64,000 nucleotides of DNA from an uncultured Actinomycetota bacterium (GCA_963795075.1 CAWCFY010000002.1:164180-228179); one strand, 5' to 3'; positions 1,986 through 51,907 are shown, counted from the first letter of the stretch. The notes: generated by a model from the sequence alone, not told the origin. Program-made: numbers and translations.

Positions 1986-2673
1986 GCGGCCATCATGCTC
2001 GCCGCGATCTCGGCCGCGGCCCACCGGGCGCCCTCGAGCAGCCCGGAGCCGGTGGAGTGCCCCACTCCGAGGAGGCCGGCCTCGGCGAGCGGCAGGTCCG
2101 GGGTGCCCAGCGCGCGGAGGTACGCCGCGAACTGCGGCAGCACCTCGCCGTGCCGGGCGCAGTCCAGCAGGGTGGCCGACAGCAGCGTCGTGCGGGCGGT
2201 GGCTGCCCGGGTCGCCTCGTCGACGGCCGGGGTCGGCAGGCCGGCTGCCCGGTGCAGCGCCAACCATCCGCAGATCACGTCGTCGCCGCGCGGGGTGAGT
2301 CCGTCACCGGCGCCGAGGAGGTCAGGCACCCGGCGGCCAGGGGATCGGGCCGCCGGGACCCGCGGGCAGGTCCGCCGTGCGGACCCGGGGCACGGTCACG
2401 GAGTGCAAGACGACCCACGACCAACGGGACGCCGGAGAGGTGCAGCACGCCGGCGCGCACCTCGGCCGGTCCGCCGCCCAGCCGGCCCAGGTCGGGGCTG
2501 CGGGTGAGCAGGGCACACGGGACCCGGGTGGCGTGCTGGTCCACGACGCCGACGCACCAGCCGTCGAGGTCGACGTACACCGCGTGGGCCCCCCGGTGCA
2601 CCACCGGGACCGGTCCGTCGGCCGCGTCCGAGAGCCGCGCGTGGACGCGCGGCGGGGCGCTGGCGGGGATCAC
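1982..2673 (-). pseudogene. DUF2877 (YlbF/AllH-like) protein, frame-disrupted
   Basis: Two track ORFs in different frames, 2275..2673 and 1982..2329. The second carries LLGAGDGLTPRGDDVICGWL, a GLTPxGDD motif typical of DUF2877. The frame switch lies somewhere in 2330-2420. Confidence 0.6.
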
Positions 2674-2749
2674 AGCACCCGACGCTAGTCCTGCGGGTTA
2701 CCGTTTGCCGACGTGAGGTTGTGCCAACGATCTCGACAGGGGAGTGCAC

Positions 2750-4060: not shown

Positions 4061-4176
4061 CCAGATAGTTGCCATGGCCACCGGCGTTCCTTTGGCACCA
4101 CTCGCCGTCGTCGCGGTCTCATGGGCCTCATTAGGTTGTGGTTCTCTCGGTGACCACCGAGCGAGGAGGCAGTGCC

Positions 4177-5553
4177 ATGGCGTCGTTGTTCAAGTGGGAC
4201 GTGGTCCATCCCGCGCCGGGTGAGGCGGTCGCGCCGCACCAGCGCCTGACCTGGGGCCGGACCGCCGGCCTCGGAGCCCAGCACGTGGTCGCGATGTTCG
4301 GTGCGACCTTCGTGTTCCCGCTGGTGATGGGGCTCGACCCCAACCTGGCGATCATGTTCTCCGGGATCTGCACGATCCTGTTCCTGCTGATCTGCAGCAA
4401 CAAGGTGCCGAGCTACCTCGGCACCAGCGCCTCGTTCGTGGCCAGCGTCGCGGCGATCCGCTCGCAGGGCGGTGACTCCTCCGACGTGACCGGCGCGATC
4501 ATGATCGCCGGCATCGTGCTGCTCCTGGTCGGCGTGCTGGTGCACTTCTCCGGGACCGGCACGATCCACAAGATCCTGCCGCCGGCGGTGACCGGCGCGG
4601 TGGTCATGCTGATCGGCTTCAACCTGGCCCCGGTGGTCGCCGAGATCTACTGGCCCCAGGACCAGTGGGTGGCGCTGCTGACCGCCACCTTCATGATCTG
4701 CGCGGCGGTGCTGTTCCCGGGCTTCTGGTCCCGGATCGCGGTGTTCCTCGCGCTGATCTTCGGCTACGTCGTCTCCTGGCTCTTCGACGGCGTCTTCGGC
4801 CAGATCAACTCGCCCAACTCGCTGAACAACTTCGCCGTCGAGGAGCACGACCGGGTCACCTGGGCCGGGGTGCAGGCCGCCGACTGGATCGGCTTCCCGA
4901 GCGGGACGCTGGCCGACGGCGTCTCGGTGGTGCACGGCCCGAGCTTCTCGCTGACGTTCGTGCTGCTCGTGCTGCCCGGCGTGATCGCGCTCGTCGCCGA
5001 GAACACCGGCCACGTCAAGGCGGTCGCGGAGATGACCGGCGACGACCTCGACCCCTACATGGGCCGCGCGATCGGGGCGGACGGGTTCGCGACCGCGCTC
5101 GCCAGCGCGTTCGGCGGCTCGCCGACCACGACGTACGCCGAGAACATCGGGGTCATGGGCGCGACCCGGGTCTACTCGACCGCGGCCTACTACGTCGCCG
5201 CGGGCGTGGCCATCCTGCTCGGGCTGTGCCCCAAGTTCGGCGCCGTGGTCAGTGCCACCCCCGGTGGCGTTCTGGGTGGGATCACCGTGGTGCTCTACGG
5301 CATGATCGGACTGGTGGGAGCCAAGATCTGGGTGGAGAACCGGGTCGACTTCGGTCGTCCGGTCAACCTGGTGGGGCTGGCCGCCGGCATCATCGCCGGC
5401 ATCGGTGGCGTGACGTTGAAGTTCAGCGACGACTTCGAGCTCAGCGGCATCGCGCTCGGCACGATCCTGGTGATCGCCTACTTCCACCTGGTGGGCTCGG
5501 GCCGACGGTCCGGGGACGAACGCGGCGCCGACGAGGTGACCAAGGCCCTGTGA
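4177..5553 (+). CDS. NCS2/NAT-family nucleobase:cation symporter, UraA/RutG-like
   Basis: Track ORF 4138..5553. ATG at 4177 follows GAGGAGG. The protein is polytopic, with QHVVAMFGATFVFPL and AENTGHVKAV (E-x-x-G-H as in uracil permease, rather than the Q-N-x-G of xanthine permeases). Confidence 0.85.
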   Translation: MASLFKWDVVHPAPGEAVAPHQRLTWGRTAGLGAQHVVAMFGATFVFPLVMGLDPNLAIMFSGICTILFLLICSNKVPSYLGTSASFVASVAAIRSQGGDSSDVTGAIMIAGIVLLLVGVLVHFSGTGTIHKILPPAVTGAVVMLIGFNLAPVVAEIYWPQDQWVALLTATFMICAAVLFPGFWSRIAVFLALIFGYVVSWLFDGVFGQINSPNSLNNFAVEEHDRVTWAGVQAADWIGFPSGTLADGVSVVHGPSFSLTFVLLVLPGVIALVAENTGHVKAVAEMTGDDLDPYMGRAIGADGFATALASAFGGSPTTTYAENIGVMGATRVYSTAAYYVAAGVAILLGLCPKFGAVVSATPGGVLGGITVVLYGMIGLVGAKIWVENRVDFGRPVNLVGLAAGIIAGIGGVTLKFSDDFELSGIALGTILVIAYFHLVGSGRRSGDERGADEVTKAL

Positions 5554-6440
5554 AGCCAGCACCGTTCGACTATCTCCGGCCGGGGTCGCTCGCCGAGGCG
5601 ACGACGGCCCTGGCCGGGGAGCCGAACGCGAAGGTGCTCGCGGGAGGGCAGAGCCTGATCCCGCTGCTGTCGATGCGGCTGGCCGCGCCCACGCTGCTCG
5701 TCGACATCAACGGGCTGCCCGACCTGGCCGGCATCGAGGTCACCGACGCCGGCGTGCGGGTCGGTGCGCTGGCCCGGCACGCCGACGTGCTCGCCTCGGC
5801 CGAGGTACGCCGCGTGCAGCCGCTGGTCTCGCTGGCCCTGGCGCACGTGGCCCACGCCACGATCCGCAACCGGGGCACCACGGTCGGCTCGATCGTGCAC
5901 GCCGACGCGGCCGCGGAGATGCCGGTGGTGCTCACCCTGCTCGGCGGGTCGGTCGACGCCGAGTCGTCGGCCGGTCGACGGACCGTCGCCGCCGCGGACC
6001 TCTTCCTCGGGCCGCTGGAGACCTCGCTGCGCCACGACGAGGTCGCCGTCTCGGCATGGTTCCCGGCCCTCGACCCCGGGGCCGGAGTCGGCTTCGAGGA
6101 GGTCGCGCGCCGGCACGGCGACTACGCCATGTGCGGGGTGGCCGCGGTCGTGCACGTCGAGGACGAGACCGTCACCCGGGCGCACGCCGGGTACGTCTCG
6201 GTCGGCGAGGTCCCGGTCGTCGTCGACCTGACCCCCGCCTTCGCGGACGGCAGCGGTGACCCGGCGTACGTGCGAGCGGGCGAGCTGGCCCTGGACTCGC
6301 TCGACCCGGTCGAGGACCTGCACGCCACCGCGGCGTACCGCGCCCAGCTGGTCCGGGTGCTGACCGCGCGGGTCCTGCGCGCCGCCCACCAGGACGCGCG
6401 CGCACGCGCCGGCGCCGACCCGATCGGGAGGACCGGATGA
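5550..6440 (+). CDS. Molybdenum hydroxylase FAD-binding (medium, CoxM/XdhB-like) subunit
   Basis: GTG at 5550 overlaps the permease stop (GTGA). Translation: VKPAPFDYLRPGSLAEA...LAGGQSLIPLLSMRLAAPTLLVDINGL. Confidence 0.85.
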   Translation: MKPAPFDYLRPGSLAEATTALAGEPNAKVLAGGQSLIPLLSMRLAAPTLLVDINGLPDLAGIEVTDAGVRVGALARHADVLASAEVRRVQPLVSLALAHVAHATIRNRGTTVGSIVHADAAAEMPVVLTLLGGSVDAESSAGRRTVAAADLFLGPLETSLRHDEVAVSAWFPALDPGAGVGFEEVARRHGDYAMCGVAAVVHVEDETVTRAHAGYVSVGEVPVVVDLTPAFADGSGDPAYVRAGELALDSLDPVEDLHATAAYRAQLVRVLTARVLRAAHQDARARAGADPIGRTG

Positions 6441-6937
6441 GCGAGCAGCTGCACGACGTCCGCCTCGTCGTCAACGGAGCCGCCCACGACCTGCGGGTGC
6501 CGGCCCGCCGGCTGCTCTCCGACGCGCTGCGGCACGACCTGCGGCTCACCGGCACCCACGTGGGCTGCGAGCACGGCGTGTGCGGCGCCTGCACGGTGCT
6601 GCTCGACGGTCGGCCCACGCGGTCGTGCCTGGTGCTCGCGGTGTCGGCGCACGGCGCGGAGGTCACCACGGTCGAGGGGCTGACCGAGGCCGACGGCTCG
6701 CTCGGCCCGGTGCAGCAGGCGTTCGCCGAGTGCCACGGCCTGCAGTGCGGGTTCTGCACGCCGGGCTTCCTGACCACGATCACCGCCGGTCTGCGCGACA
6801 ACCCGCAGCCGTCGCGGGCCGAGGCCAAGGAGATGGTGGCCGGCAACCTGTGCCGCTGCACCGGCTACCAGAACATCGTCGCGGCCGTCGAGCGCGCCGC
6901 CGAGATCGCCGGTGGGATCGCCGGTGAGCGCGGATGA
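6437..6937 (+). CDS. Molybdenum hydroxylase (2Fe-2S)-binding small subunit (CoxS-like)
   Basis: ATGA overlap with the upstream gene. Contains CEHGVCGACTV and CGFCTPGF cysteine clusters. Confidence 0.9.
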   Translation: MSEQLHDVRLVVNGAAHDLRVPARRLLSDALRHDLRLTGTHVGCEHGVCGACTVLLDGRPTRSCLVLAVSAHGAEVTTVEGLTEADGSLGPVQQAFAECHGLQCGFCTPGFLTTITAGLRDNPQPSRAEAKEMVAGNLCRCTGYQNIVAAVERAAEIAGGIAGERG

Positions 6938-9360
6938 CCACCAAGCTCTTCGGCACCCCGGTGCAGCGGGTCGAGGACCAGCGGCTCCTGCGCGGCCTGG
7001 GCCGCTACGCCGACGACGTCGCCGTCGGCCCGGGCACGCTGCACGCCGCGGTGCTGCGCTCACCGCACGCCCACGCCCGCATCGTCGACATCGACGTCGG
7101 TGACGTGCTCGACGTCGACGGCGTGCACGCGGTGTGGACCCACGAGGACCTCACCGGCCCGATGGCCGAGCCGCTGCCCCTGCTGATCCCGCACCCGACG
7201 CTGACCCAGGGCCGCACGCAGTACGCGCTGGCGAAGGACGAGGTCAACTACGTCGGCGAGGCGGTCGCCTTCGTCGTCGCGGAGGACCGCTACCTCGCCG
7301 AGGACGCCGTCGACCGGATCCACGTCACCTGGCAGGTGCTCGAGCCGGTCGTGGGTCTCGAGCAGGCCCGGGCCGCCACCCGGCTCGTGCACGACGACGT
7401 GCCCGGCAACGTCGGCGCCCGGATGGAGCAGCACAACGGCGACGCGCCCGCGGCGGTGGCCTCGGCGCCGCACCGGCTCGAGCTCGACCTGACCATCGAG
7501 CGCAGCGCGTCGACGCCGCTGGAGGGGCGCGGCACGGTGGCCCGCTGGGACCCCGACATCAACCGGCTGCAGGTGTGGAGCTCGACGCAGACCTCGACCG
7601 GGGTGCGGGCCGTGGTGGCCACCAAGCTCGGGCTCGACCTCGCGCAGGTCGACGTGATCACGCCCGACGTCGGCGGCGGCTTCGGGGTGAAGATCAACCA
7701 CCCGTGGCCCGAGGAGCTGCTCGTCCCGCTGGCTGCGCGGACGCTCGGCCGGACGGTGAAGTTCACCGAGGACCGGCGCGAGCACTTCATCTCCTCCGCC
7801 CACGAGCGCGGGCAGGTCCACCACGTCGAGGTGGGCTTCGACGACGAGGGCCGGCTGCTCGGCCTCGACGTGCAGTTCTGGCACGACCACGGCGCGTACA
7901 CGCCGTACGGGCTGATCGTGCCGATCATCACCTCGACCCAGCTGCTCGGCCCCTACAAGCCGAAGAGCTACCGGGTCGTCTTCGAGTCGCTCTACACCAA
8001 CACGGTGATGGTCACGCCCTACCGTGGCGCCGGCCGGCCGCAGGGGTGCTACGTGATGGAGCGGACCATGGACGCGATCGCCGCGCACCTCGGCAAGGAC
8101 CGCGCCGACGTCCGCGCGGTCAACTTCATCCAGCCCGAGGAGTTCCCCTACGACCACGGGCTGGTCTTCCAGGACGGCCGCGAGCTGGAGTACGACTCCG
8201 GCGACTACCCGGCGCTGCTGACCAAGATCAAGGACCTCATCGCCTGGGACGAGTTCCCCGCGTTCCAGGCCGAGATGGCCGCCGAGGGACGCCGGGTCGG
8301 ACTCGGCCTCGCCTGCTACGTCGAGGGCACCGGCGTCGGTCCCTACGAGGGGGCGCACGTGCACGTGGAGACCTCGGGCAAGGTCAAGGTGGCCACCGGG
8401 CTGACCACCCAGGGGCAGGGGCACGCCACCGTGCTGGCCCAGCTCGTCGCCGACGAGCTCGGCTGCCGGTTCGAGGACGTCGAGGTGGTCACCGGCGACA
8501 CCCGGCGGATGCCGTACGCCGTCGGGACGTTCGCCTCCCGGGCGGCGGTGATGAGCGGCTCGGCGGTGCACCTGGCGGCCCAGCGCGCCAGGGAGAAGGT
8601 GCTCCAGATCGCCTCCGAGGCGCTGGAGGTCGACCCGGCGGACCTGCAGATCGCCGACGGCGTGGTCTCGGTGAAGGGGGCCCCCGGTGCCTCGATCGAC
8701 CTCGGCACGGTCTCGGTGCTCTCCAACCCGCTGCGCTACGCCTTCGACGAGGCGTCCAAGGCGGCCACCCAGTTCTCCGTCGGCGACCCGGGCAAGCCGC
8801 CGGTGCCCGAGGACGAGGAGCCGGGCCTGGAGGGCCGCGACTTCTACTCCCCGGAGCGGGCGACCTTCGCCGCCGGGATGCACGCGGTGATCGTGGAGAC
8901 CGACCCGGAGACCGCGGAGATCACGATCCTGAAGTACGCCGTGGTCCACGACTGCGGCAACCTGATCAACCCGATGATCGTCGAGGGCCAGATCCACGGC
9001 GGCGTCGCCCAGGGCGTGGGCGGCGCGCTCTACGAGCGGATGGCCTACGACGAGAACGGGCAGCTGCAGAACGCCTCGTTCATGGACTTCTTGATGCCCT
9101 ACGTCACCGAGGTCCCCGACACCATCGACATCGACCACCTCCAGACCCCCTCCCCGCTGAACCCGCTCGGCATCAAGGGCGCCGGGGAGGCCGGGGTGAT
9201 CCCCTCCGCAGCGGTCTTCGCCGCCGCGATCGAGGACGCCGAGGGCATCGCGATCACCGCGATGCCGATCTCGCCCTCCGACCTGTTCACCCTGCGCCAG
9301 TCGTCGCTCGACGCGGGCGCGCAGGGTCCGTCTCGAGACCACCCCGAGGAGACCCGATGA
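6934..9360 (+). CDS. Molybdopterin-binding large subunit, xanthine dehydrogenase family (form-II CoxL-like)
   Basis: 808 aa. Contains GGGFGVK and VTPYRGAGRPQG (the AYRGAGR-type motif, not the AYxCSFR of true CO dehydrogenase). Start is translationally coupled (ATGA). Confidence 0.9.
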   Translation: MTTKLFGTPVQRVEDQRLLRGLGRYADDVAVGPGTLHAAVLRSPHAHARIVDIDVGDVLDVDGVHAVWTHEDLTGPMAEPLPLLIPHPTLTQGRTQYALAKDEVNYVGEAVAFVVAEDRYLAEDAVDRIHVTWQVLEPVVGLEQARAATRLVHDDVPGNVGARMEQHNGDAPAAVASAPHRLELDLTIERSASTPLEGRGTVARWDPDINRLQVWSSTQTSTGVRAVVATKLGLDLAQVDVITPDVGGGFGVKINHPWPEELLVPLAARTLGRTVKFTEDRREHFISSAHERGQVHHVEVGFDDEGRLLGLDVQFWHDHGAYTPYGLIVPIITSTQLLGPYKPKSYRVVFESLYTNTVMVTPYRGAGRPQGCYVMERTMDAIAAHLGKDRADVRAVNFIQPEEFPYDHGLVFQDGRELEYDSGDYPALLTKIKDLIAWDEFPAFQAEMAAEGRRVGLGLACYVEGTGVGPYEGAHVHVETSGKVKVATGLTTQGQGHATVLAQLVADELGCRFEDVEVVTGDTRRMPYAVGTFASRAAVMSGSAVHLAAQRAREKVLQIASEALEVDPADLQIADGVVSVKGAPGASIDLGTVSVLSNPLRYAFDEASKAATQFSVGDPGKPPVPEDEEPGLEGRDFYSPERATFAAGMHAVIVETDPETAEITILKYAVVHDCGNLINPMIVEGQIHGGVAQGVGGALYERMAYDENGQLQNASFMDFLMPYVTEVPDTIDIDHLQTPSPLNPLGIKGAGEAGVIPSAAVFAAAIEDAEGIAITAMPISPSDLFTLRQSSLDAGAQGPSRDHPEETR

Positions 9361-9974
9361 AGATCAGCGGCGAGGCCGTCCTGCACGCCCCGGTCGAGCG
9401 GGTCTGGGACGCGGTGCTCGACCCCACCGTGCTGGTGCGCACGATCCCGGGCTGCGAACGGCTCGAGTCCGCGGGGGAGCACGCCTACTCGATGACGGTC
9501 ACCGCCGGGGTCGCGTCGATCCGGGGCACCTACGCCGGCTCGTGCGTGCTCTCCGACCTGCAGCCGCACGAGTCGCTGCTGATGAAGCTCGAGGGGTCCG
9601 GTGCGCCGGGCACGATCGGGGCCGACGTACGCGTCGGGTTCCGCGACGGCGGCGACGGCACCACCACGCTCAGCTACGACGCCGAGGCCGTCGTCGGCGG
9701 CATGGTCGGCGGCGTCGGCCAGCGGATGCTGACCAGCGTCTCGCGGCGGATGGCGGCGGAGTTCTTCGGCAACATCGACGCGGTGCTCACCGGCACGGCG
9801 GCGCCGCCCGCGGTGGAGGTGTCGGCTGCCGCCTCGGGCGAGGGCCAGGTGTTCACCGCACCCGCGGGTGCCGCGTCCGGGGCGCCGAGCCAGGACTTCT
9901 ACCGCGGGGTGGCCGTGGGGGCCGGTCTGGTGCTGCTGGGCGTCGCCGCCGGCGTGGTGCTCGGCCGCCGGTGA
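9357..9974 (+). CDS. CoxG-like SRPBCC protein with C-terminal TM anchor
   Basis: ATG at 9357 overlaps the large-subunit stop. Translation: MKISGEAVLHAPVERVWDAVLDPTVLVRTIPGCERLE..., with a hydrophobic tail GVAVGAGLVLLGVAAGVVLG. Confidence 0.75.
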   Translation: MKISGEAVLHAPVERVWDAVLDPTVLVRTIPGCERLESAGEHAYSMTVTAGVASIRGTYAGSCVLSDLQPHESLLMKLEGSGAPGTIGADVRVGFRDGGDGTTTLSYDAEAVVGGMVGGVGQRMLTSVSRRMAAEFFGNIDAVLTGTAAPPAVEVSAAASGEGQVFTAPAGAASGAPSQDFYRGVAVGAGLVLLGVAAGVVLGRR

Positions 9975-9981
9975 GCCGGCG

Positions 9982-11384
9982 ATGAGCGACCTGGGCGTCG
10001 ACTCCACGGCGCGCGAGCAGGCGGCCGCCGTGCGCGCCGGGTCGATCTCCGCCCGCGAGCTGCTCGACCTGCACCTGCATCGGATCGCGGAGCGCAACCC
10101 CGAGCTCAACGCGATCGTCTCGCTCGACGAGGAGCGCGCTCGCGACGGCGCCGCCGCGGCCGACGAGGTGCTGGCGTCCGGAGCCGAGGTCGGCGCCGCT
10201 GCACGGCCTGCCGCACGCGTTCAAGGACACCCACGCGGTCGCCGGCTGGCGGACGACGTACGGCTCGCCGCTGTACGCCGACCACGTGCCCGAGACCGAC
10301 GAGCTGCTGGTCGAGCGCATCCGCGCGGGCCGGGGTGGTGGTGATCGGCAAGACCAACGTGCCGGAGTTCGCCGCCGGCTCGCACACGTTCAACCCGGTC
10401 TTCGGCACCACGCTGAACCCGGTCGACCCCACCCGGTCGGCGGGCGGGTCGAGCGGCGGAGCGGCGTGCGCGCTGGCCACCGGGATGGTCCCGCTCGCCG
10501 AGGGGTCGGACATGGGCGGCTCGCTGCGCAACCCGGCGTCGTTCTGCGGGGTCGTGGGCCTGCGTCCCTCCCTGGGCCGGGTGCCGGAGTGGCCGCTGTA
10601 CAACCAGTGGGAGACCACCTCGGTGGGCGGGCCGATGGCCCGCAACGTCGGCGACCTGGCGCTGCTGCTCTCGGTCGTCGCCGGCCCCGACCCCCGCGCG
10701 CCGCAGGCGCTGGGCGACCCGGGGGCGGCGTTCGCACCGCCGGTCGCGGCGTCGCTGGCCGGGGTCCGGGTGGCGCTGTCGGTCGACCTCGGCGGCGCGT
10801 TCGAGGTGGACCACGACGTGGCGGCCGTGGTCGAGTCGTCGGCCTCGCTCTTCGCCGCGGGTGGCGCGTCGGTGGCCCCGGCGTACCCCGACCTGGCCGA
10901 GGCCGACGACACCTTCCGCACCCTGCGGGCCTGGCACCTGCACGCCAAGTTCGCCGACCTGCTGGCCGCGCACCCGGACTCGTTCAAGCAGTCGCTGGCC
11001 GACAACATCCGGGCCGGCGAGCCGCTGACCGGCGCCGACGTCGCCCGCGCCTACGCCCAGCGGACGGCGCTCTCGGAGCGGATGCGGGAGTTCTTCCGCG
11101 ACCACGACGTGCTGGTGCTGCCGGTCTCGCAGGTGCCGCCGTTCCCGGCCGACCAGGAGTTCCCCACCGAGATCAACGGCCGGCCGATGCAGACCTACCT
11201 GGACTGGATGCGGGCGGCGTACCTGATCACCGTCACCGGCTGCCCGGCGATCTCGGTGCCGGCCGGGCACACGCCGGAGGGGCTGCCGGTGGGCATCCAG
11301 ATCGTCGGCCCGCACGGGTCGGAGCGGCGGCTGCTCGAGATCGCGGCGGGCTTCGAGGCGGCGTACACCCCGACCCGCCCCTAG
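9982..11384 (+). pseudogene. Amidase-signature (AS) family amidase, two frame disruptions
   Basis: Three consecutive frames. First: MSDLGVDSTAREQAAAVRAGSISARELLDLHL...AEVG. Second: PLHGLPHAFKDTHAVAGWRTTYGSPLYADHVPETDELLVERIRAG. Third: VVIGKTNVPEF...GGSSGGAACALATGMVPLAEGSDMGGSLRNPASFCG. The switches lie near 10196 and 10330, each consistent with one extra nucleotide. Confidence 0.8.
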
Positions 11385-27577: not shown

Positions 27578-27587
27578 GGAGGACGAC

Positions 27588-41190: not shown

Positions 41191-42003
41191 TCATGGTCCG
41201 AACAACCCCTCGACGTCGGGCAGCTCTTGGAACCGCGAGAACGCGCCCTGCTCGGCGATCTCGTGGGCGGACGCCAGGAAACCGTCCCAGGCGGTCCGTG
41301 CGAGGGTGCCGCCCACACTCACCCGGCGCACCCCCAGCTCCGCCGCCTCCGCGACGGTGGTGAAGGGGGCGTTGATGAGCAGGTTCACCGGGGTGGGGGC
41401 GACGGCGGAGACGATCGCGGAGACGTGGTCGAGGTCGTCGATGCGGGGCGCGTAGACGCAGTCGGCACCGGCCTCGGCGTACGCCTGCAGCCGGCGGATG
41501 GTCTCGTCGATGTCCGGTCGCCCGCAGACGAAGCCTTCCGAGCGGCCGGTCAGCACGATCCCGGTGCCGCTGTCGTCGATCGCCTGACGGGCTGCGCTGA
41601 CCCGCTCCACGGCCAGGCCGAACTCGAAGAGCGGGTCGGCCGCGTCTCCCGTGCAGTCCTCGATGGAGAGGCCGGCGATGCCGGTCTGCGTGGCGAGGGC
41701 GACGTTGGTGGCCACGCCGCCCGGGTCGACGGCGAAGCCGCCCTGGAAGTCGGCGTTCACGGGCACGTCGACCGCCTCGGCGATCACGCGCAGGTGGTCG
41801 AGCGTCTGGTCGAGGGTCACCTGGGTGTCCGCACGACCCGACGTCCAGGCCAGGCCGGCACTGGTCGTCGCCAGCGCCGGGAAACCGAGCCGTTCCAGGA
41901 TGCGCGCAGTCCCCGCGTCCCACGGGTTCGGCATCACGAAGATCCCGGAGTCGTGCAGGCGGCGGAACGTCTCGATCCGCTTCTGGGCAACGGTCATGGC
42001 CAC
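41191..42003 (-). CDS. Isocitrate lyase/PEP mutase-family protein
   Basis: Translation: FRRLHDSGIFVMPNPWDAGTARILERLGFPALATTSAG...GLSIEDC. Confidence 0.8.
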   Translation of the reverse strand: MAMTVAQKRIETFRRLHDSGIFVMPNPWDAGTARILERLGFPALATTSAGLAWTSGRADTQVTLDQTLDHLRVIAEAVDVPVNADFQGGFAVDPGGVATNVALATQTGIAGLSIEDCTGDAADPLFEFGLAVERVSAARQAIDDSGTGIVLTGRSEGFVCGRPDIDETIRRLQAYAEAGADCVYAPRIDDLDHVSAIVSAVAPTPVNLLINAPFTTVAEAAELGVRRVSVGGTLARTAWDGFLASAHEIAEQGAFSRFQELPDVEGLFGP

Positions 42004-42154: not shown

Positions 42155-44242
42155 ATGAGCCCGCGCGCCTCCCGCACGATCCGGATCGGCATCGACACGG
42201 GCGGCACCTTCACCGACGTGGTGGCCTTCGACGAGGTCTCCGGGGACGTCGTCACCACCAAGACCCCCTCGACGCCCGCCAACCCGGCCGACGGGTTCCT
42301 GGCCGGCATCGACAAGGTGCTCGAGCTGCTCGGGGCCGACGCCGGGGCGATCGACGCGGTCAGTCACGGCACCACGGTGGCCACCAACCAGCTGCTCGAG
42401 GGCAAGGTCGACCGGCTCGGGTTCGTCACCACGGCCGGCTACGAGTCGATGCTGGAGATCGCCCGCCAGTCGGTGCCCGACGGCTACGGCAACTCCTATT
42501 TCTGGGTGAAGCCCAGCCGCATCGTCCCGCGCGACCTCGTGCGGGGCGTCGGGGGGCGGCTGGACTTCACCGGGGCGGAGGTGCGCCCCTTCGACGAGGA
42601 GTCCGCCCGCGCCACCGCCCGGTGGTTCCGGGCGCAGGGCGTGACCACGCTCGGCGTCTGCTTCCTGCACGCCTACGCCAACCCCGAGCACGAGGAGCGG
42701 ATGCGCGCGGTGCTCGCCGAGGAGCACCCGGACGCCGTGGTCTCGCTGAGCAGCGAGGTGCTGCGCGAGTACCGCGAGTACGAGCGGGCGATGACCACGC
42801 TGGTCGACGCCGCCGTCAAGCCGCGGCTCTCGGCGTACGTCACCAACATCAAGACCCGCCTCGACGCCCTCGACCGGCGCGAGATCCCGTTCTACGTGAT
42901 GAAGTCCAACGGCGGCGTGCTCTCCGCCGACGAGGTCGTGCACCAGCCGATCACCACCGTGCTCTCCGGCCCCGCCGCCGGGGCGCTGGGGGCGGCGCTG
43001 ATCGCCCAGGTCGCCGGGTTCGACCGGGTGCTCACCAGTGACGGCGGCGGGACGTCGACCGACGTCTCGGTGGTCATCGACGGCGAGCCCACGCTGACCA
43101 CCGAGGGCACCGTCGGCGCGTTCCCCTCCAAGATCCCGATGATCGACGTGGTCACCGTCGGCGCCGGCGGCGGCTCGATCGCGTGGCTCTCGCCCGAGGG
43201 CACCCTCAAGGTCGGTCCGCACTCGGCCGGCGCCGACCCGGGCCCGCTCTGCTACGGCAAGGGCGGCACCGACGTCACCATCACCGACGCGCACGTCGTC
43301 CTCGGCCGGATCCCGCCGCACCTGCTGGGTGGGGAGATCCCGCTCGACGTCGACGCGGCCCGCGCCGGCGTCGAGACGCTGGCCGAGCAGCTCGGGCTCA
43401 GCCCGGAGGCCTGCGCCAGCGGCGTCCTGGAGATCTCCGCGTGGAACCAGGCCAACGCGCTGCGCCAGGTCACCGTCAAGCGCGGGCTCGACGTGCGCGA
43501 CTTCACCCTGACCACCTTCGGCGGCTCGGGCTCGCTGCTGCTGTGCCGGCTGATGGACGTGCTCGGTGTGCGCACGGTGCTGGTGCCGCCCAACCCCGGC
43601 AACGTCTCCGCCTTCGGCCTGCTGACCGTGGACGTGAAGAACGACTACGTGCGCACGCAGGTCGCCCTCGCCGAGGCGTTGTCGCCCGACGACGTGGGTG
43701 GCATCTACGCCGAGCTCACCGACCAGGCCCGGCGCGCGCTGGTCCAGGAGGGCTTCGCCGACGAGGAGCACCAGTTCGTGCGCACGGCCGACCTGCGCTA
43801 CTTCGGGCAGGCCTACGAGGTGCGGGTCGGCGTACCCGACGGTGCGGTCGACCGGGACGTGCTCACCGGGGTCGCCGACCGCTTCCACGCCGAGCACCGC
43901 GCGCTGTACGGCTACGACTTCGCCCACGACGACAGCCAGCAGGTGGAGTGGGTCAACCTGCGCGTCTCCGGCATCGGCCCGATCCAGCGGCCCGAGATCC
44001 AGCGGCACCCGCGCGCGGAGTCGCCGGCCGTCACGCCCACCGGTCACCGGAAGGTCTGCTTCGACCCCGCCGACGGGTACGCCGAGACGCCGGTGCTGTG
44101 GCGAGCCGACCTCGCGCCCGGCACCGTGCTGACCGGACCCGCCGTCGTCGAGGAGTTCGGCTCCACGGTGCCGCTGCACCCGGGCTTCACGGCGCGAGTC
44201 GACGAGTACCTCAACCTGATCGTCACCAGGAGCCAGCAGTGA
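42155..44242 (+). CDS. hyuA: Hydantoinase/oxoprolinase A subunit
   Basis: ATG at 42155. Translation: RIGIDTGGTFTDVVAFD...TSDGGGTSTDVS. Confidence 0.85.
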   Translation: MSPRASRTIRIGIDTGGTFTDVVAFDEVSGDVVTTKTPSTPANPADGFLAGIDKVLELLGADAGAIDAVSHGTTVATNQLLEGKVDRLGFVTTAGYESMLEIARQSVPDGYGNSYFWVKPSRIVPRDLVRGVGGRLDFTGAEVRPFDEESARATARWFRAQGVTTLGVCFLHAYANPEHEERMRAVLAEEHPDAVVSLSSEVLREYREYERAMTTLVDAAVKPRLSAYVTNIKTRLDALDRREIPFYVMKSNGGVLSADEVVHQPITTVLSGPAAGALGAALIAQVAGFDRVLTSDGGGTSTDVSVVIDGEPTLTTEGTVGAFPSKIPMIDVVTVGAGGGSIAWLSPEGTLKVGPHSAGADPGPLCYGKGGTDVTITDAHVVLGRIPPHLLGGEIPLDVDAARAGVETLAEQLGLSPEACASGVLEISAWNQANALRQVTVKRGLDVRDFTLTTFGGSGSLLLCRLMDVLGVRTVLVPPNPGNVSAFGLLTVDVKNDYVRTQVALAEALSPDDVGGIYAELTDQARRALVQEGFADEEHQFVRTADLRYFGQAYEVRVGVPDGAVDRDVLTGVADRFHAEHRALYGYDFAHDDSQQVEWVNLRVSGIGPIQRPEIQRHPRAESPAVTPTGHRKVCFDPADGYAETPVLWRADLAPGTVLTGPAVVEEFGSTVPLHPGFTARVDEYLNLIVTRSQQ

Positions 44243-46195: not shown

Positions 46196-46208
46196 GCGGG
46201 CCGGGCAG

Positions 46209-46952
46209 GTGGGTGTGAGCACGCGGGTCGCGGTCGTCGGCGGGCACGGCAAGACCGGTCGTGCGGTGGCCGACGCACTGGTGGCCCACGGCGCCGACGT
46301 GGTCACCACCGGGCGCTCCGAGCACGACGGTCCGGTGGTCCGGCTGGCGGCCGCGTTGCGCGGGTGCGACGCGGCGTACCTGATCGCGCCCAACCTGCAC
46401 CCCGACGAGCCGGCGTACGTCGCGCACGCTCTCGAGGCCGCCCGCCTCGCCGGGATCACCCGCGTCGTCCACCACTCGGTGGCCTCGCCCTACGCGCCGA
46501 CGATGCCGCACCACCTGGGCAAGGCGATCGCCGAGGACCTCGTGCGGCGCAGCGGGCTCACCTGGACGATCCTCCAGCCCGGGCCCTACCTGCAGAACCT
46601 CGACCTGACCACGACCGTGCGGCTGCCCTACCGGGCCGACGCGGTCTTCGGGTTCGTCGACCTCGCCGACGTCGGGGAGGCCGCCGCGGTGGTGCTGCTC
46701 CAGGGCGGCCACGCCGGGGCGACGTACGAGCTGGCGACGCGGAGCGCGACCGTGGCCGAGCTGGCCGCGGAGGCGGGCGTCGACGTGGTCGTCGACCGCG
46801 ACCGGGACGACCACGGGCTCACGGACCGCGAACGGGACTGGTTGGCGGCGATGTTCGCCCACTACGACGCCTACGGACTCCCGGTCGGGACGCTGCCGTT
46901 GCGCGCGCTGCTGGGACGGCCGGCGCCCTCGGTCACTAGGTTCGAGCCATGA
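46209..46952 (+). CDS. NmrA-like/SDR-type NAD(P)-binding protein
   Basis: Contains VAVVGGHGKTGRAVADAL. Confidence 0.7.
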   Translation: MGVSTRVAVVGGHGKTGRAVADALVAHGADVVTTGRSEHDGPVVRLAAALRGCDAAYLIAPNLHPDEPAYVAHALEAARLAGITRVVHHSVASPYAPTMPHHLGKAIAEDLVRRSGLTWTILQPGPYLQNLDLTTTVRLPYRADAVFGFVDLADVGEAAAVVLLQGGHAGATYELATRSATVAELAAEAGVDVVVDRDRDDHGLTDRERDWLAAMFAHYDAYGLPVGTLPLRALLGRPAPSVTRFEP

Positions 46953-47917
46953 GGGTCCTGCTCGCGCTCGGTGGCAACGCCATGACCAACGCCGAGGGAC
47001 GCGCCCGCCCCGAGGACCAGATCGCGGCCGCGCGGGTCGCCGCCGACTCGGTGGCCGACCTGATCGCCCGCGGCGACGAGGTCGTGGTCACCCACGGCAA
47101 CGGCCCCCAGGTGGGCAACCTGCTGGTCAAGAACGAGCTCGCCGCGGCCGTCGTACCCCCGGTGCCGCTGGACTGGTGCGGCGCGCAGACCCAGGCCACG
47201 CTCGGCTTCGTGCTGATGAACGCCCTCGACGCGGCCCTGCGCGAGCGCGGCGTCGACCGGCGTACGGCGACCGTGGTCACCCGCACCCGGGTCAGCGCCG
47301 ACGACCCCGGCTTCACCCGGCCGACCAAGCCGATCGGGCGCTACCTCTCCGCCGACGAGGCCGGGCTGCTCGTCGAGCACGGCGAGACCTGGGAGGACCG
47401 CGGCGAGAAGGGGTGGCGCCGCGTCGTCGCGTCACCCGAGCCACGGGAGATCCTCGACGCCGCCGCCATCGAGGCGCTGGTCGGCAGTGGGTTCACGGTG
47501 ATCGCCAACGGTGGCGGCGGGATCCCGGTCGTCGTCGAGGACGACGGCAGCCTGCGCGGCGTCGAGGCGGTCATCGACAAGGACCTCGGTGCCGGGCTGC
47601 TGGCGCGCTCCGTGGCCGCCGACGTGCTGGTGATCGCCACCGACGTGCCGCAGGCCGTGCTCCGCTTCGGCACGCCCGACGCCACCCCGGTCGGCCGGGT
47701 GAGTGTCTCCGAGCTGCGCGCCCTCGCCGCGGAGGGCCACTTCGCGAGCGGCTCGATGGGCCCGAAGGTCGACGCCGCCTGCCGGTTCGTCGAGCAGGGC
47801 GGCAGCCGCTCGGTGATCACCAGTCTCGACCACATCCTTCAGGCGGTGTCCGGCGAGGCCGGCACCGTCGTCGTACCCGACACCCACCCGTCCGACCCCA
47901 CCCGAGGAGAGCAGTGA
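46949..47917 (+). CDS. arcC: Carbamate kinase
   Basis: Translation: [12 protein letters not shown]...[15 protein letters not shown]...[13 protein letters not shown] overlap with the upstream gene. Confidence 0.9.
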
Positions 47918-47918
47918 C

Positions 47919-49022
47919 ATGCCCGACGCCATCGAAGTACGCAAGGTCCCGATCCACTCGGTCGCCGACGCCAGCGAGCTGGCCAAGCTCATCGACGACG
48001 GGGTGATGCACGCCGACCGGGTGATCGCGATCATCGGCAAGACCGAGGGCAACGGCGGGGTGAACGACTACACCCGGATCATCTCCGACCGCGCGTTCCG
48101 CGAGGTGCTGGTGGACAAGGGCGCCCCCGCCGACCAGGTCAAGCAGATCCCGATCGTCTGGTCCGGCGGCACCGACGGCGTGATCAGCCCGCACGCGACG
48201 ATCTTCGCGACCGTCCCGCCCGAGGACGTGACGCCGAGCGACGAGCCGCGGCTGACCGTCGGCTTCGCGATGAGCGAGGTGCTGCTGCCCGAGGACATCG
48301 GCCGGGTGGCGATGGTGGAGAAGGTCGCCGACGCCACCCGGGTGGCGATGGAGCGCGCCGGGATCACCGACCCCGCCGAGGTGCACTACGTGCAGACCAA
48401 GACCCCGCTGCTGACCGTGCACACCATCCGCGACGCGAAGTCGCGCGGCAAGACGGTGTGGACCGAGCACACCCACGAGTCGATGGACCTCTCCAACGGC
48501 ACCACCGCGCTCGGCATCGCGGTGGCGCTCGGCGAGATCGAGATGCCCAGCGACGCCGACGTGATGCACGACCGCTCGCTGTACTCCGCGGTGGCCTCCT
48601 GCTCCTCGGGCGTCGAGCTCGACCAGGCGCAGGTCGTCGTGGTCGGCAACGCGCCCGGGGTCGGCGGCCGCTACCGGATCGGTCACTCGGTGATGAAGGA
48701 CGCGCTCGACGCCGACGGCATCTGGGCCGCGATCAAGGACGCCGGGCTCGACCTGCCCGAGCGGCCCCACCCCTCCGACCTCGACGGCCGGCTCGTCAAC
48801 GTGTTCCTCAAGTGCGAGGTCTCCCAGGACGGCGTCGTACGCGGGCGACGCAACGCGATGCTCGACGACTCCGATGTGCACTGGCACCGGCAGATCAAGG
48901 CCGCGGTCGGTGGGGTCACGGCGTCGGTGACCGGGGACCCGGCGGTGTTCGTGTCGGTCTCCGCGGCGCACCAGGGACCGGACGGCGGCGGCCCGGTGGC
49001 CGCGATCGTCGACCTCGGCTGA
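47919..49022 (+). CDS. Ring-opening amidohydrolase (barbiturase/cyanuric acid amidohydrolase family)
   Basis: 367 aa: [16 protein letters not shown]...[14 protein letters not shown]...VQTKTPLLT...ASCSSGVEL, with a threefold internal layout as in AtzD/barbiturase. The start lies 1 nt after the arcC stop. Confidence 0.8.
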
Positions 49023-49088: not shown

Positions 49089-49505
49089 ATGCGAACACTG
49101 GTGGCAACTCATCGGACGAACGGCACTGCCGACGGAGACTACGACTTCTGCATCGAGGGGGAAGTGGTCTACATGCAACCGCCCTGCGCCTCGGACGCGC
49201 GCGACCCGGACGGGCCGTGCGGCTGCGGCCGCGGGTTCAGCGGGATGAACTCCCATCGAGCCACGACGACGGCGCTCGTGGTGGAGAGCCCGCTGTCCGA
49301 GGACGACGTGCGGGTGGCGCTGCGGGCGAGCCTGGAGGCGGGGGGCTGGATCGACCCGGATGTCCATACCGATGCGGAGGTCGAGCCGATCCTCGACGAG
49401 GTGCTCGGCGAGGTGAAGACCGTGGCCGAGCACTTCGCGCCGGGCAGCGTGGTGCGTCGGAGGCTGAGCCAGTACGCCGAGCGGTTCCCGTCACCCTCGC
49501 GCTGA
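49089..49505 (+). CDS. Conserved hypothetical protein
   Basis: 138-aa track ORF with GC3-rich codons and the Cys pattern CASDARDPDGPCGCGRGF. Confidence 0.45.
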   Translation: MRTLVATHRTNGTADGDYDFCIEGEVVYMQPPCASDARDPDGPCGCGRGFSGMNSHRATTTALVVESPLSEDDVRVALRASLEAGGWIDPDVHTDAEVEPILDEVLGEVKTVAEHFAPGSVVRRRLSQYAERFPSPSR

Positions 49506-50087: not shown

Positions 50088-50226
50088 GGGGGCTCCTGGC
50101 ACGGGGTCGGGGCGGGGCGGGGTCCTGCGTGTACCCCGGCACCGGGCGTTGATGCCCTGGGCGTCGCGCGGTGCAGCGAGGGGCAGTGCCGGGACCCGTC
50201 TGGGCGAACGGACAGCGCCCACGCGA

Positions 50227-51405
50227 TCAGTCGTCCAACCACTCCCGGATCGCGGCGCCGTGCTGGTCCAGCGTCGGGGGAGCGAGGTGCTCGGCCCGTC
50301 CGCCGGAGTGCGGGTTGTCGTCGTACCGCAGCGGTGAGCCGGGCAGGTTGAGCGTGCCCTGCGTGGGGTGCTCGACCTCGAGCAGCAGCCCCTGCGAGCG
50401 GACCTGGTCCCAGCCGTAGACGTCGTCGAGCGTGCGGACCTTGCCCGAGGGCACGCCGGCCTCGGCGAGCTGGGCCAGCCAGTGCTCGGCGGTGTCGGTG
50501 GCGAAGTGCGCCTCCAGGAGTGCGATCAGCTCGTCGCGGTGCTGCACGCGCAGCTGGTTGGTGGCGAAGCGCGGGTCCGTGGGTTCGAGGTCCAGTGCCT
50601 TGCACAGCGACAGCCAGAGGCCCTCGGAGCCGCAGGCGATCTGGATCGGCGCGGTCCCGGTCTCGAAGAGGCCGTACGGCGCGATCGCCGGGTGGTGGTC
50701 ACCGGCCAGACCGGGCACCTCGCCGCCCACCGTCCAGCGGGTCCCCTGGAAGGCGTGCACGCCGACCACGCCGGCGAGCAGCGACGTACGCACGACACGT
50801 CCGCGGCCGGTCACTGCACGCTCGTGCAGCGCCGCCAGCACGCCGAAGGCGCCGTTCATCCCGGCGAGCAGGTCGGCGATCGGCACCCCGACCTTGGTCG
50901 CCTGCTCGGTGCCGGTGATCGACATCAGCCCGCCCTCGCCCTGCGCGATCTGGTCGTACCCGGCGCGGGTCGCCTCGGGCCCGTCGTGGCCGAAGCCGGT
51001 GATCGACATGATCACCAGTCTCGGGTTGAGCTCGTGCAGGCGCTCGACGGAGAAGCCGAGGCGGTCCAGCACCCCGACCCGGTAGTTCTCCAGCAGCACG
51101 TCGGCCCGCACCACCAGCCGCGCCAGCACGTCCCGGTCCGCGGCGTCCTTGAGGTCGAGGACGATCGACTCCTTGTTGCGGTTGGCCGAGAGGTAGTACG
51201 TCGACTCCCGCTCGTCCCCCTCGCCGACGAAGGGAGGGCCCCAGCCGCGGGTGTCGTCCCCGGCGGGCGGCTCCACCTTGATCACCCGGGCCCCCTGGTC
51301 GCCGAGCATCATCGCCGCGTGCGGACCCGCCAGAGCACGGGTCAGGTCGAGCACGAGCAGGTCGGCGAGGGGCCCGTCGGCGGTCTCGGGTGTGGACGAC
51401 GTCAT
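50227..51405 (-). CDS. Family III CoA-transferase (CaiB/BaiF)
   Basis: Translation: LADLLVLDLTRALAGPHAAMMLGDQGARVIKVEPPAGDDTRGWGPP. Confidence 0.85.
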   Translation of the reverse strand: MTSSTPETADGPLADLLVLDLTRALAGPHAAMMLGDQGARVIKVEPPAGDDTRGWGPPFVGEGDERESTYYLSANRNKESIVLDLKDAADRDVLARLVVRADVLLENYRVGVLDRLGFSVERLHELNPRLVIMSITGFGHDGPEATRAGYDQIAQGEGGLMSITGTEQATKVGVPIADLLAGMNGAFGVLAALHERAVTGRGRVVRTSLLAGVVGVHAFQGTRWTVGGEVPGLAGDHHPAIAPYGLFETGTAPIQIACGSEGLWLSLCKALDLEPTDPRFATNQLRVQHRDELIALLEAHFATDTAEHWLAQLAEAGVPSGKVRTLDDVYGWDQVRSQGLLLEVEHPTQGTLNLPGSPLRYDDNPHSGGRAEHLAPPTLDQHGAAIREWLDD

Positions 51406-51469
51406 GCCCCGACTCAACCACCGTGGGTCGGGGTCGCGGAACCGCGGGTGGTGACATCGCCGCGTCGGT

Positions 51470-51907
51470 GTGCTGAGAATGAGGAGCATGAGTGCACTCA
51501 CCGCCATCGTGCCGAAGATCGTCGCCCCCTCCGCCGACGAGGCTCTCGCGTTCTACTCCCGGGCCTTCGGGCTCGAGGTCACCCAGCGCTACACGCACGG
51601 GGACACCGTCGTGTTCGCAGAGGCCAGTGCTGGCGACGTACGCCTGCAGGTCAAGGACGCCGACGCCACCGACCCGGCCGGCCCGACCGCCTCGCTCGTC
51701 CTCACCGTCGAGACCGACGACGCGGCCACGCTCGCCAAGCACGCCGTCGAGGCCGGCGCCGAGGTGGTCTTCGAGGTCGCCGCCCAGGGCTACGGGATGG
51801 TCCAGGGCCGCGTGCGCGACCCGTACGGCGTGCAGTGGATCGTCTCCCAGACCGTCGAGGACCTCACCCCCGAGCAGGTGCAGGAGCGGATCGACGCGAT
51901 GACCTGA
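51470..51907 (+). CDS. VOC/glyoxalase-family (PhnB-like) protein
   Basis: Translation: PKIVAPSADEALAFYSRAFGLEV...GRVRDPYGVQWIV. The start is ambiguous (51470, 51479 or 51488). Confidence 0.7.
   Translation: MLRMRSMSALTAIVPKIVAPSADEALAFYSRAFGLEVTQRYTHGDTVVFAEASAGDVRLQVKDADATDPAGPTASLVLTVETDDAATLAKHAVEAGAEVVFEVAAQGYGMVQGRVRDPYGVQWIVSQTVEDLTPEQVQERIDAMT

Follow-up and report, generated by a model that had tools for sequence, protein, structure and literature searches.

In a 64,000-nucleotide stretch of DNA from an uncultured Actinomycetota bacterium (GCA_963795075.1, CAWCFY010000002.1:164180-228179; hereafter the window), a gene for an arcC-type carbamate kinase directly precedes a gene for a barbiturase (bar). 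It is well supported that this pair is part of a cluster of actinobacterial genes for the oxidative catabolism of pyrimidines, namely uracil and probably also thymine and cytosine. The cluster also encodes a trio of proteins homologous to FdrA/AllFGH of Escherichia coli, and its gene content suggests a combination of the oxidative pyrimidine pathway with the AllFGH/AllK module. In such a combination the trio may split the barbiturase product, ureidomalonate, with phosphate, and the kinase may recover ATP from the resulting carbamoyl phosphate. The two genes of the pair are as follows.

46949..47917, plus strand: arcC-type carbamate kinase, 322 amino acids, intact (TIGR00746, PRK12352)
47919..49022, plus strand: barbiturase (Bar, EC 3.5.2.1) orthologue, 367 amino acids, intact (PF09663/TIGR02714, 5HWE)

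The carbamate kinase-barbiturase pair

The sequence-only reading of this locus had placed the kinase stop at 47917 and the ATG of a ring-opening amidohydrolase at 47919. Both positions are correct: the TGA occupies 47915-47917, the spacer consists of one nucleotide (C, 47918), and a Shine-Dalgarno-like GAGGAG is located within the 3' end of arcC. The kinase scores above the cut-off of PRK12352 (316 bits, cut-off 266), slightly short of that of TIGR00746 (351 bits, cut-off 358), and reaches 275 bits against the Pyrococcus furiosus carbamate kinase 1E19. Its catalytic motifs, GSMGPK among them, are intact, and by sequence the product is classed as a genuine carbamate kinase.

The bar product matches the Rhodococcus erythropolis barbiturase structure 5HWE with 676 bits and 84% identity; against cyanuric acid hydrolases (TrzD, AtzD and the Moorella and Azorhizobium enzymes) it reaches at most 324 bits, the value for TrzD. 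The barbiturase signature, given in AtzD positions 195/321/325/345/346, is Asn/His/Lys/Val/Ser(Ala) (Peat et al. 2013, PMC3758960). All five residues are found in the window protein, as Asn193 (in DLSNG), His323 and Lys327 (both in HWHRQIK), Val347 and Ser348, and the AtzD-type signature Arg195/Thr321/Arg325/Gly345/Gly346 is absent; the first position is Arg in all four cyanuric acid hydrolase sequences aligned. The Ser-Lys dyads and the metal-binding loop (HQGPDGGG) are conserved at positions matching 5HWE. A glutamine was also considered as the discriminating residue (Cho 2014) and set aside, as the alignment gives Asn for 5HWE as well as for the window protein, in agreement with Peat 2013. 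Clustering at 50% identity leaves a single library representative for the barbiturase group, and the next full-length proteins are 45-47% identical. The sequence-only reading had left the type of the enzyme open; the 84% identity and the five-residue signature assign the product to the barbiturases (Group VI) of the AtzD/Bar Toblerone-fold family rather than to the AtzD/TrzD type.

When one genome per GTDB species was scanned, more than 540 relatives were obtained, from which the best 80 loci were kept. These loci stem from Nocardioides, Marmoricola, Pseudonocardia, Terrabacter, Knoellia, Janibacter, Intrasporangium, Phycicoccus, Pedococcus, Humibacillus, Oryzobacter, Cryptosporangium and Jatrophihabitans. 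Of these best 80 loci, 77 extend more than 1.2 kb upstream of bar, and in every one of the 77 the gene next to bar on its 5' side is an arcC homologue on the same strand, with a median gap of 23 nt and a maximum of 122 nt. The sequence-only reading had named a lack of such adjacency in relatives as evidence against its proposal; the adjacency is conserved. The pairing spans Nocardioidaceae, Intrasporangiaceae, Pseudonocardia, Cryptosporangium and Jatrophihabitans, and the chromosomal flank varies (purH/purN/sucCD in Intrasporangiaceae, UvrD-like helicases in Nocardioides). As the flanks differ between families, the pairing is more than inherited synteny. The two genes also stay one unit across the rearrangements found in L088, L105 and L126-L128, described below.

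On one metagenome contig (P0461) arcC and bar form a single open reading frame (ORF), in which the kinase C-terminus passes cleanly through a 7-residue linker into bar. A genuine fusion of this kind would strongly indicate that both enzymes work together. A further single ORF (L048, 9014-11095) was rejected as a natural fusion; it is probably a frameshift artefact, since its junction is Arg-rich and off-frame. In four of the 80 loci, all from Nocardioides (L004, L011, L040 and L056), homologues of arcA and arcD are located about 3-5 kb 5' of arcC, and no arcB was seen in these four loci. The kinase may serve two pathways there.

Gene content and arrangement of the cluster

The other genes of interest in the window are located in two parts, one at its left end and one around arcC and bar.

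3..~521, minus strand: AllG (YlbE/DUF1116), N-terminal part, cut by the window edge (from translation)
522..1985, minus strand: AllF (FdrA), 72% identical to AllF of N. donggukensis
1982..2673, minus strand: AllH (YlbF/DUF2877; PF11392), its stop overlapping the AllF start
2744..4060, plus strand: PucR-family regulator, divergent from the trio (PF17853, PF13556)
4138..5553, plus strand: NCS2 permease, pyrimidine/uracil type (PF00860)
5550..6440, plus strand: CoxM-like FAD subunit of a molybdenum hydroxylase (Pfam domains)
6437..6937, plus strand: CoxS-like 2Fe-2S subunit of the molybdenum hydroxylase (Pfam domains)
6934..9360, plus strand: CoxL-like Mo subunit of the molybdenum hydroxylase (Pfam domains)
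9357..9974, plus strand: CoxG/SRPBCC accessory protein (PF06240), conserved in position
9982..11384, plus strand: amidase-signature amidase (PF01425), recovered by tblastn in three pieces
41191..42003, minus strand: PEP-mutase/isocitrate-lyase superfamily protein, divergent from HyuA (PF13714, 235 bits)
42155..44242, plus strand: HyuA, hydantoinase/oxoprolinase A subunit of an ATP-dependent lactamase-type enzyme (PF05378, PF01968, PF19278)
44239..~46195, plus strand: HyuB subunit (PF02538, 434 bits)
46209..46952, plus strand: NmrA-like NAD(P)H-binding protein (PF13460, PF05368)
49089..49505, plus strand: DUF7715 protein, 66 nt 3' of bar (PF24831)
50227..51507, minus strand: family III CoA-transferase, candidate malonate CoA-transferase (PF02515, 387 bits)

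The G+C content of the window is 72%, and the closest matches of its proteins are found in Nocardioides and Marmoricola, largely in metagenome bins from soil. No sequencing run contained more than 25% of the window's words, and the matching runs were all soil DNA.

The FdrA trio claimed in the sequence-only reading is present, with its limit at 2673 as given there; it is encoded on the minus strand and continues beyond the left end of the window. Its constituents, FdrA/AllF, DUF1116/AllG and DUF2877/AllH, are the three subunits of the AllFGH family. An AllF orthologue scores 378 bits against the FdrA model NF004760, and complete trios are found in L083-L085 (PF27530/PF00549, PF06545, PF11392). 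In L083, a 96%-identical relative, AllG is complete (PF06545) and no kinase gene follows it; the genes after AllG are unrelated in L083, L084 and L085 alike. The PucR gene has the same position in L083-L085, L088 and many metagenome loci. An orthologue of the permease scores 352 bits with RutG, 253 bits with uracil permease and 151 bits with xanthine permease.

The CoxL-like subunit scores 1517 bits against NF040766 (aerobic carbon-monoxide dehydrogenase large subunit) and carries PYRGAGR in place of the CO-dehydrogenase motif AYRCSFR. It is always accompanied by genes for a uracil-type permease and a barbiturase, and the CoxMSL-type hydroxylase is a candidate uracil/thymine dehydrogenase. The amidase that the sequence-only reading had placed at 9982 is likewise real, as an amidase-signature gene interrupted by two apparent frameshifts. 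It is a candidate malonamate amidase or, alternatively, a candidate ureidomalonase; orthology to malonamidase E2 (MAE2) was rejected, as the score against MAE2 is only 84 bits and GatA and AtzE-type enzymes score higher. Genes for allantoin, ureidoglycolate, biuret or allophanate metabolism were found in none of the clusters examined. Because a barbiturase gene and a RutG/uracil-type permease gene occur together without such genes, we read uracil, and perhaps thymine and cytosine, as the substrate. Of the pyrimidine or s-triazine ring catabolism considered in the sequence-only reading, the barbiturase and the permease thus favour the former, and the signature residues speak against the latter.

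In the right part of the window, arcC and bar are apparently the last two genes of a hyuA-hyuB-nmrA-arcC-bar operon, as judged from the sequence. The HyuA and HyuB genes overlap in GTGA, the stop of the NmrA-like gene and the start of arcC overlap in ATGA, and a simple scan of the plus strand from 42155 to 49022 revealed no terminator-like sites, which is weak evidence in DNA of high G+C content. The nearest named family of HyuA is caprolactamase alpha (513 bits, under the model cut-off). For the PEP-mutase/isocitrate-lyase protein, distant homologues of 37-40% identity are found within the cluster of L001, L011, L013 and L027, and its membership in the system is uncertain. The DUF7715 gene does not recur in the clustering of neighbourhoods, and its product probably stands outside the system. 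Between bar and the CoA-transferase gene, a hemerythrin-domain protein is encoded at 49587-50222 on the minus strand; it scores 97 bits against the PA2171 'ribosome-binding persister protein' model, under the cut-off of 190.

Recurrent neighbours of arcC-bar were determined by clustering all ORFs of the 80 loci together with targeted tblastn searches. HyuB is found near the pair in 50 of the 80 loci, HyuA in 39 and the NmrA-like protein in 43; the latter follows HyuB in 40 of the 67 loci with a full 10 kb of upstream DNA. Fifty of the 80 loci have a family III CoA-transferase gene no more than 10 kb from bar. In 18 of these 50 a fused carboxyltransferase of AccD/AccA type is also present, usually between the CoA-transferase gene and arcC. 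Both enzymes fit a malonate end product, which would be converted via malonyl-CoA to acetyl-CoA. The genes for the CoxL-type molybdenum subunit, CoxG and the amidase-signature amidase lie directly 5' of HyuA in 8-12 loci, and in 8 loci the amidase-HyuAB-arcC-bar run immediately follows the hydroxylase genes. The most compact locus, L080, has the order HyuA-HyuB-NmrA-CoA-transferase-carboxyltransferase-arcC-bar on a single strand.

Deaminases of the CDA-like and CodA-like types also recur near arcC-bar. A CodA-like amidohydrolase (cytosine/creatinine deaminase type) is encoded directly 5' of HyuA in L012, L022, L027, L029 and L033, and in Embleya (L088, 9468-10910) a CodA-like gene adjoins HyuB, accompanied by genes for an NCS1 permease and another PucR regulator. 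The CodA-like enzyme may feed cytosine into the pathway or may point to a hydantoin-type substrate of HyuAB.

The sequence-only reading had described the kinase as lying 45 kb from its usual partners. This holds for the genome at hand, where the trio is located 45 kb from arcC and no transcarbamylase gene adjoins arcC, but not for relatives, in which the genes are contiguous. The two parts of the cluster are separated in the window by about 31 kb (11.4-42 kb) of unrelated accessory genes. Encoded between 11400 and 42000 are two DUF222 proteins, a GNAT protein, Arr, an RpiR regulator, an SSF transporter, a HAD hydrolase, two amidohydrolases, an ornithine cyclodeaminase-like protein, a bleomycin-resistance-like protein, a P450 fragment, a 2-hydroxyacid dehydrogenase, a DUF1015 protein and a beta-lactamase-family protein. 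Arr, a rifampin ADP-ribosyltransferase, lies at 18047-18478 (PF12120, 167 bits). L083 is split in the same way as the window. In view of the accessory DNA, we regard the 45-kb separation as a lineage-specific split.

Loci with a linked trio were located by anchoring on CoxL homologues. N. donggukensis (L084) and Pseudonocardia acidicola (L085) carry all genes in one cluster of about 20 kb, in which AllH, AllF and AllG run leftwards (AllG<-AllF<-AllH) and PucR-permease-CoxM-CoxS-CoxL-CoxG-amidase-HyuA-HyuB-NmrA-arcC-bar(-CoA-transferase) run in the opposite direction. In Embleya (L088, Streptomycetaceae) the order is HyuAB...NmrA-CoA-transferase-carboxyltransferase-arcC-bar, followed by an inverted PucR-permease-CoxMSL-CoxG block with AllHFG, and the trio is within about 16 kb of arcC. 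The usual place of the amidase-signature enzyme, after CoxG, is taken there by a nitrilase-superfamily amidase (27051-27950), which looks like a non-orthologous replacement of the amidase step. The metagenome contigs L126-L128 carry CoxMSL-permease-PucR, then AllH-AllF-AllG-amidase, then bar<-arcC<-carboxyltransferase<-CoA-transferase<-HyuB. L105 is a further variant, with yet another arrangement of a closely spaced trio, arcC and bar. The genes that the sequence-only reading had linked across the window, those for the trio, the amidase, the kinase and the ring-opening amidohydrolase, are hence members of one gene cluster. It is contiguous in L084 and L085, and in Embleya, L105 and L126-L128 the trio is close to arcC and bar in other arrangements.

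An additional scan of metagenome contigs was centred on AllG, with matches 65-86% identical. A kinase gene follows AllG in none of the 56 loci with at least 1.5 kb of downstream DNA, and a permease or CoxM gene is located upstream in 21 of the 24 loci with enough upstream DNA. Wherever arcC is seen in these loci, it adjoins bar. The trio therefore has no kinase of its own, and the kinase it would need is the one joined to the barbiturase. In L126-L129 the amidase gene follows AllG.

Several genes of the window appear frameshifted. AllH is split into two frames near 2300-2330. Compared with L083, one additional base near 522 abolishes the AllF/AllG boundary, such that AllF reads into AllG without a stop. 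The amidase is distributed over three frames by apparent frameshifts near 10198 and 10325. HyuB shows an apparent +1 frameshift near 45930, caused by one extra G in the G-rich run GGCGGCGGCGGG relative to a 94%-identical relative (L002), which alters its C-terminus. Further window genes look truncated. The indels are probably assembly errors of the long-read type; the competing explanation is that the genes are real pseudogenes.

Comparison with characterised systems

Knowledge of the oxidative pyrimidine pathway dates back to the 1950s, and to our knowledge barbiturase is its only enzyme tied to a gene. In R. erythropolis JCM 3132 the pathway comprises uracil/thymine dehydrogenase, barbiturase and ureidomalonase (Soong et al. 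2001, 2002), and the barbiturase is orthologous to that of the window (84%). We examined the gene neighbourhood in Rhodococcus qingshengii, whose bar product is 99% identical to 5HWE. On the opposite strand, 5' of bar, are upp (adjoining bar), PucR, CoA-transferase and carboxyltransferase genes; on the same strand follow bar, amidase, aminotransferase, a 479-aa protein, CoxM, CoxS, CoxL, a 223-aa protein and HyuA. Soong and colleagues are said to have found upp upstream of bar in 2002, with which this arrangement is consistent. The Rhodococcus locus thus shares with the window the CoxMSL-type hydroxylase, HyuA, the family III CoA-transferase and PucR regulators, and with relatives of the cluster also the carboxyltransferase. 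Unlike the window, it has the order upp-bar-amidase, and neither a carbamate kinase (AA_kinase) gene nor AllFGH genes are found within 10 kb of bar. The class III aminotransferase gene after the amidase (L089, 12754-13977) is absent from the Nocardioides-type clusters.

Between Rhodococcus and Nocardioides the identity is 84% for bar and 63% for CoxL. The Rhodococcus amidase is about 41% identical to that of the window cluster; amidases of the arcC-type clusters are 55-81% identical to each other, wherever they are sited, and 38-43% identical to the bar-adjacent amidase of Rhodococcus. In Nonomuraea, arcC and the trio are both missing from the 41 kb examined at a gene with the barbiturase signature. 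Across this small set of lineages, either both arcC and the trio are found or neither is, and the amidase differs between the two types. The published Rhodococcus route ends in urea and malonate; the arcC-type cluster adds a carbamoyl-phosphate module. HyuAB was considered as the source of carbamoyl phosphate for ATP recycling by arcC, an idea weakened by the presence of HyuA in the Rhodococcus cluster that lacks arcC. Since they are found in arcC-type and Rhodococcus-type clusters alike, HyuAB and the NmrA-like protein probably have no specific link to carbamoyl phosphate.

E. coli uses the same three-subunit family together with a carbamate kinase, AllK (Kim and Kim 2022, 2024), with the gene order allF-allG-allH-allK adjoining allD (PMC11326118, PMC9843812). 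There, AllFGH splits oxalurate with phosphate into carbamoyl phosphate and oxamate (PMC11326118). The logic of this anaerobic allantoin branch, acyl-urea phosphorolysis followed by ATP formation, is common to our proposal. The differences concern the gene order (H-F-G here, F-G-H-K in E. coli), the kinase (split from the trio and joined to the barbiturase here, with the trio in E. coli), the neighbours of the trio (PucR, a uracil-type permease and a molybdenum hydroxylase here, allD/allC/allE in E. coli), the sequences (34-51% identity between actinobacterial and E. coli subunits) and the substrate (ureidomalonate as proposed here, oxalurate in E. coli). A trio in a non-allantoin, acyl-urea context is also found in comammox Nitrospira and ammonia-oxidising archaea, where AllFGHK is located beside triuret/biuret genes in genomes that revealed no cyanuric acid hydrolase gene (atzD); in these nitrifiers, unlike here, the kinase stays with the trio (allFGHK), and barbiturase is unmentioned (PMC12625717).

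Two further comparisons are more distant. The cyanuric acid pathway (AtzD/TrzD, then AtzE-G-H-F or BiuH) has a ring-opening enzyme of the same Toblerone-fold family and an amidase-signature amidase, AtzE, to which the cluster amidase is related; the cluster differs in its barbiturase-type residues and in the absence of biuret or allophanate genes. Ureidomalonate is a carbon isostere of 1-carboxybiuret. In the arginine and agmatine deiminase pathways, a carbamate kinase likewise takes ATP from the carbamoyl phosphate of ureido-compound phosphorolysis. These pathways use transcarbamylases of the ornithine-transcarbamylase fold, none of which is found in the window, and neither arcA nor arcB was found anywhere in the window.

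Proposed pathway, alternatives and implications

Ureidomalonate (H2N-CO-NH-CO-CH2-COO-), the product of barbiturase, is oxalurate extended by one CH2. The sequences establish which genes are present and how they are linked; we infer every reaction past barbiturase, the phosphorolytic step from gene context and chemical analogy. Uracil would be taken up via the RutG/uracil-type permease and, as the putative substrate of the CoxMSL-type molybdenum hydroxylase, be oxidised by it to barbiturate. Barbiturase (47919..49022) would open the ring to ureidomalonate (3-oxo-3-ureidopropanoate), and AllH-AllF-AllG, the homologue of E. coli oxamate carbamoyltransferase, would convert this acyl-urea and phosphate into carbamoyl phosphate and malonamate. 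The carbamate kinase (46949..47917), operating in the presumed ATP-forming direction, would convert carbamoyl phosphate and ADP into ATP, NH3 and CO2. The amidase, with malonamate as its putative substrate, would release malonate and NH3; the family III CoA-transferase would form malonyl-CoA and, where present, the AccD/AccA-type carboxyltransferase would yield acetyl-CoA. The net result would be one ATP per ring by substrate-level phosphorylation, with both ureido nitrogens freed without urea. As no urea would be formed, urease would not be needed. Phosphorolysis of ureidomalonate by the trio with ATP regained by arcC, the core of this scheme, is the reading that we favour over its rivals, although we consider the balance of the argument to be even. 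A broader version, in which FdrA/AllFGH enzymes act on acyl-ureas in general as phosphorylases and one of them serves for ureidomalonate in many soil actinomycetes, is put forward tentatively, with slightly less than even confidence.

Several points weigh against the scheme. The only substrate with which AllFGH has been assayed is oxalurate, for the E. coli enzyme (PMC11326118), and the actinobacterial subunits share only 34-51% identity with those of E. coli. The trio is located within the 10-kb flank in none of 67 bar-centred loci. HyuAB and the NmrA-like protein are given no role, and the amidase is nearer to GatA/AtzE-type enzymes than to malonamidase E2 (84 bits). Should the frameshifts in AllH, AllF/AllG, the amidase and HyuB prove genuine, this strain is losing the pathway. 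Finally, R. erythropolis forms urea and malonate hydrolytically through ureidomalonase (Soong 2001, as cited in PMC3758960), and since the arcC-type clusters likewise encode an amidase, a route by hydrolysis alone could also operate here.

Such a route is the alternative that we take most seriously, unlikely as we consider it. The amidase would act as a ureidomalonase yielding urea and malonate, as in Rhodococcus, and AllHFG and the kinase would process another ureide, either an N-carbamoyl product of the ATP-dependent HyuAB or purine-derived oxalurate, with the kinase beside bar through shared regulation. Of the two routes, only that via ureidomalonase has been shown biochemically, according to the citation of Soong 2001 in PMC3758960. 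The cluster contains an amidase related to AtzE/GatA-type enzymes, whose gene is directly 3' of bar in Jatrophihabitans (L073), as well as a second ring-opening enzyme, HyuAB, that is left without a substrate in our scheme, and CodA-like and CDA-like deaminases recur nearby. We know of no gene assignment for ureidomalonase. On the other side, arcC is tied far more tightly to bar (77 of 77 loci) than to HyuAB or the trio, and HyuA also occurs in the Rhodococcus cluster without arcC within 10 kb. The amidases of the arcC-type clusters appear not to be orthologous to the bar-adjacent amidase of Rhodococcus (38-43% identity), and their position after AllG in L126-L129 is expected of an enzyme using the product of the trio. 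Nor are allantoin or ureidoglycolate genes found in these clusters.

An improbable alternative is carbamate salvage, in which the kinase spends ATP and traps ureido-derived carbamate as carbamoyl phosphate for arginine or pyrimidine synthesis. Carbamate kinase is generally known to be reversible, with some archaeal enzymes being anabolic, and upp adjoining bar in Rhodococcus hints at a link between degradation and synthesis. A catabolic operon and a carbamoyl-phosphate-forming trio without a kinase nevertheless suit the ATP-yielding direction; no ornithine- or aspartate-transcarbamylase genes are found in the window, and the equilibrium is generally known to be unfavourable to the synthesis of carbamoyl phosphate. 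It is more improbable still that arcC encodes a general catabolic kinase, for example of an arginine deiminase pathway, that is merely syntenic with bar. The arcD and arcA homologues 3-5 kb 5' of arcC in the four Nocardioides loci would agree with this, but the pairing is invariant over several families, in differing chromosomal settings and across inversions, the gaps are short, no arcB accompanies arcA, and arginine deiminase genes are absent from the window.

We reject s-triazine catabolism, in which an AtzD/TrzD-type cyanuric acid hydrolase would be followed by a kinase handling a carboxybiuret-derived product, because the enzyme is a barbiturase: its signature replaces Arg/Thr/Arg/Gly/Gly, its barbiturase score is twice that of any cyanuric acid hydrolase structure, cyanuric acid is no substrate of barbiturase (PMC4051656), and no genes for biuret hydrolase (BiuH), AtzE/G/H or allophanate hydrolase (AtzF) were found in the window or the 80 loci. 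A plain cyanuric acid hydrolase in a biuret/allophanate context, which the sequence-only reading had regarded as fatal to its proposal, is thus not what the locus contains. The bar product does pass the NCBIfam equivalog NF052395 'cyanuric acid amidohydrolase' (471 bits, cut-off 360), and many database entries for close homologues bear that name; we regard this pass as over-reach of the model. Counting by name may therefore overstate the potential for s-triazine degradation in metagenome surveys. The large subunit of the hydroxylase is likewise named 'aerobic CO dehydrogenase large subunit'.

A phosphorolytic variant of pyrimidine catabolism is, as far as we found, undescribed, in agreement with the sequence-only reading; this is provisional, as subscription journals were largely outside our literature search. 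Within the same limits, no paper was found that treats barbiturase and carbamate kinase together or that links ureidomalonate or malonamate with carbamoyl phosphate, and none of the papers found since 2019 that mention barbiturase discusses its gene context.

If the proposed phosphorolysis is true, the oxidative pyrimidine pathway makes ATP by substrate-level phosphorylation and frees all ring nitrogen without urea or urease. It would provide the AllFGH family, characterised only in 2024, with a second physiological substrate, and genes for two orphan activities: uracil/thymine dehydrogenase, encoded by the 'form II CO dehydrogenase-like' CoxMSL genes, and a malonamate-type amidase, encoded by the amidase-signature gene of the cluster. 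The ATP-dependent HyuAB would be left with a new pyrimidine-related substrate yet to be found. The cluster is widespread in soil actinomycetes, with more than 540 relatives in species-representative genomes, and offers candidate genes for every step of the pathway. For these organisms we predict a branch of pyrimidine catabolism that conserves energy via carbamoyl phosphate and avoids urea, and so the nickel-dependent urease.

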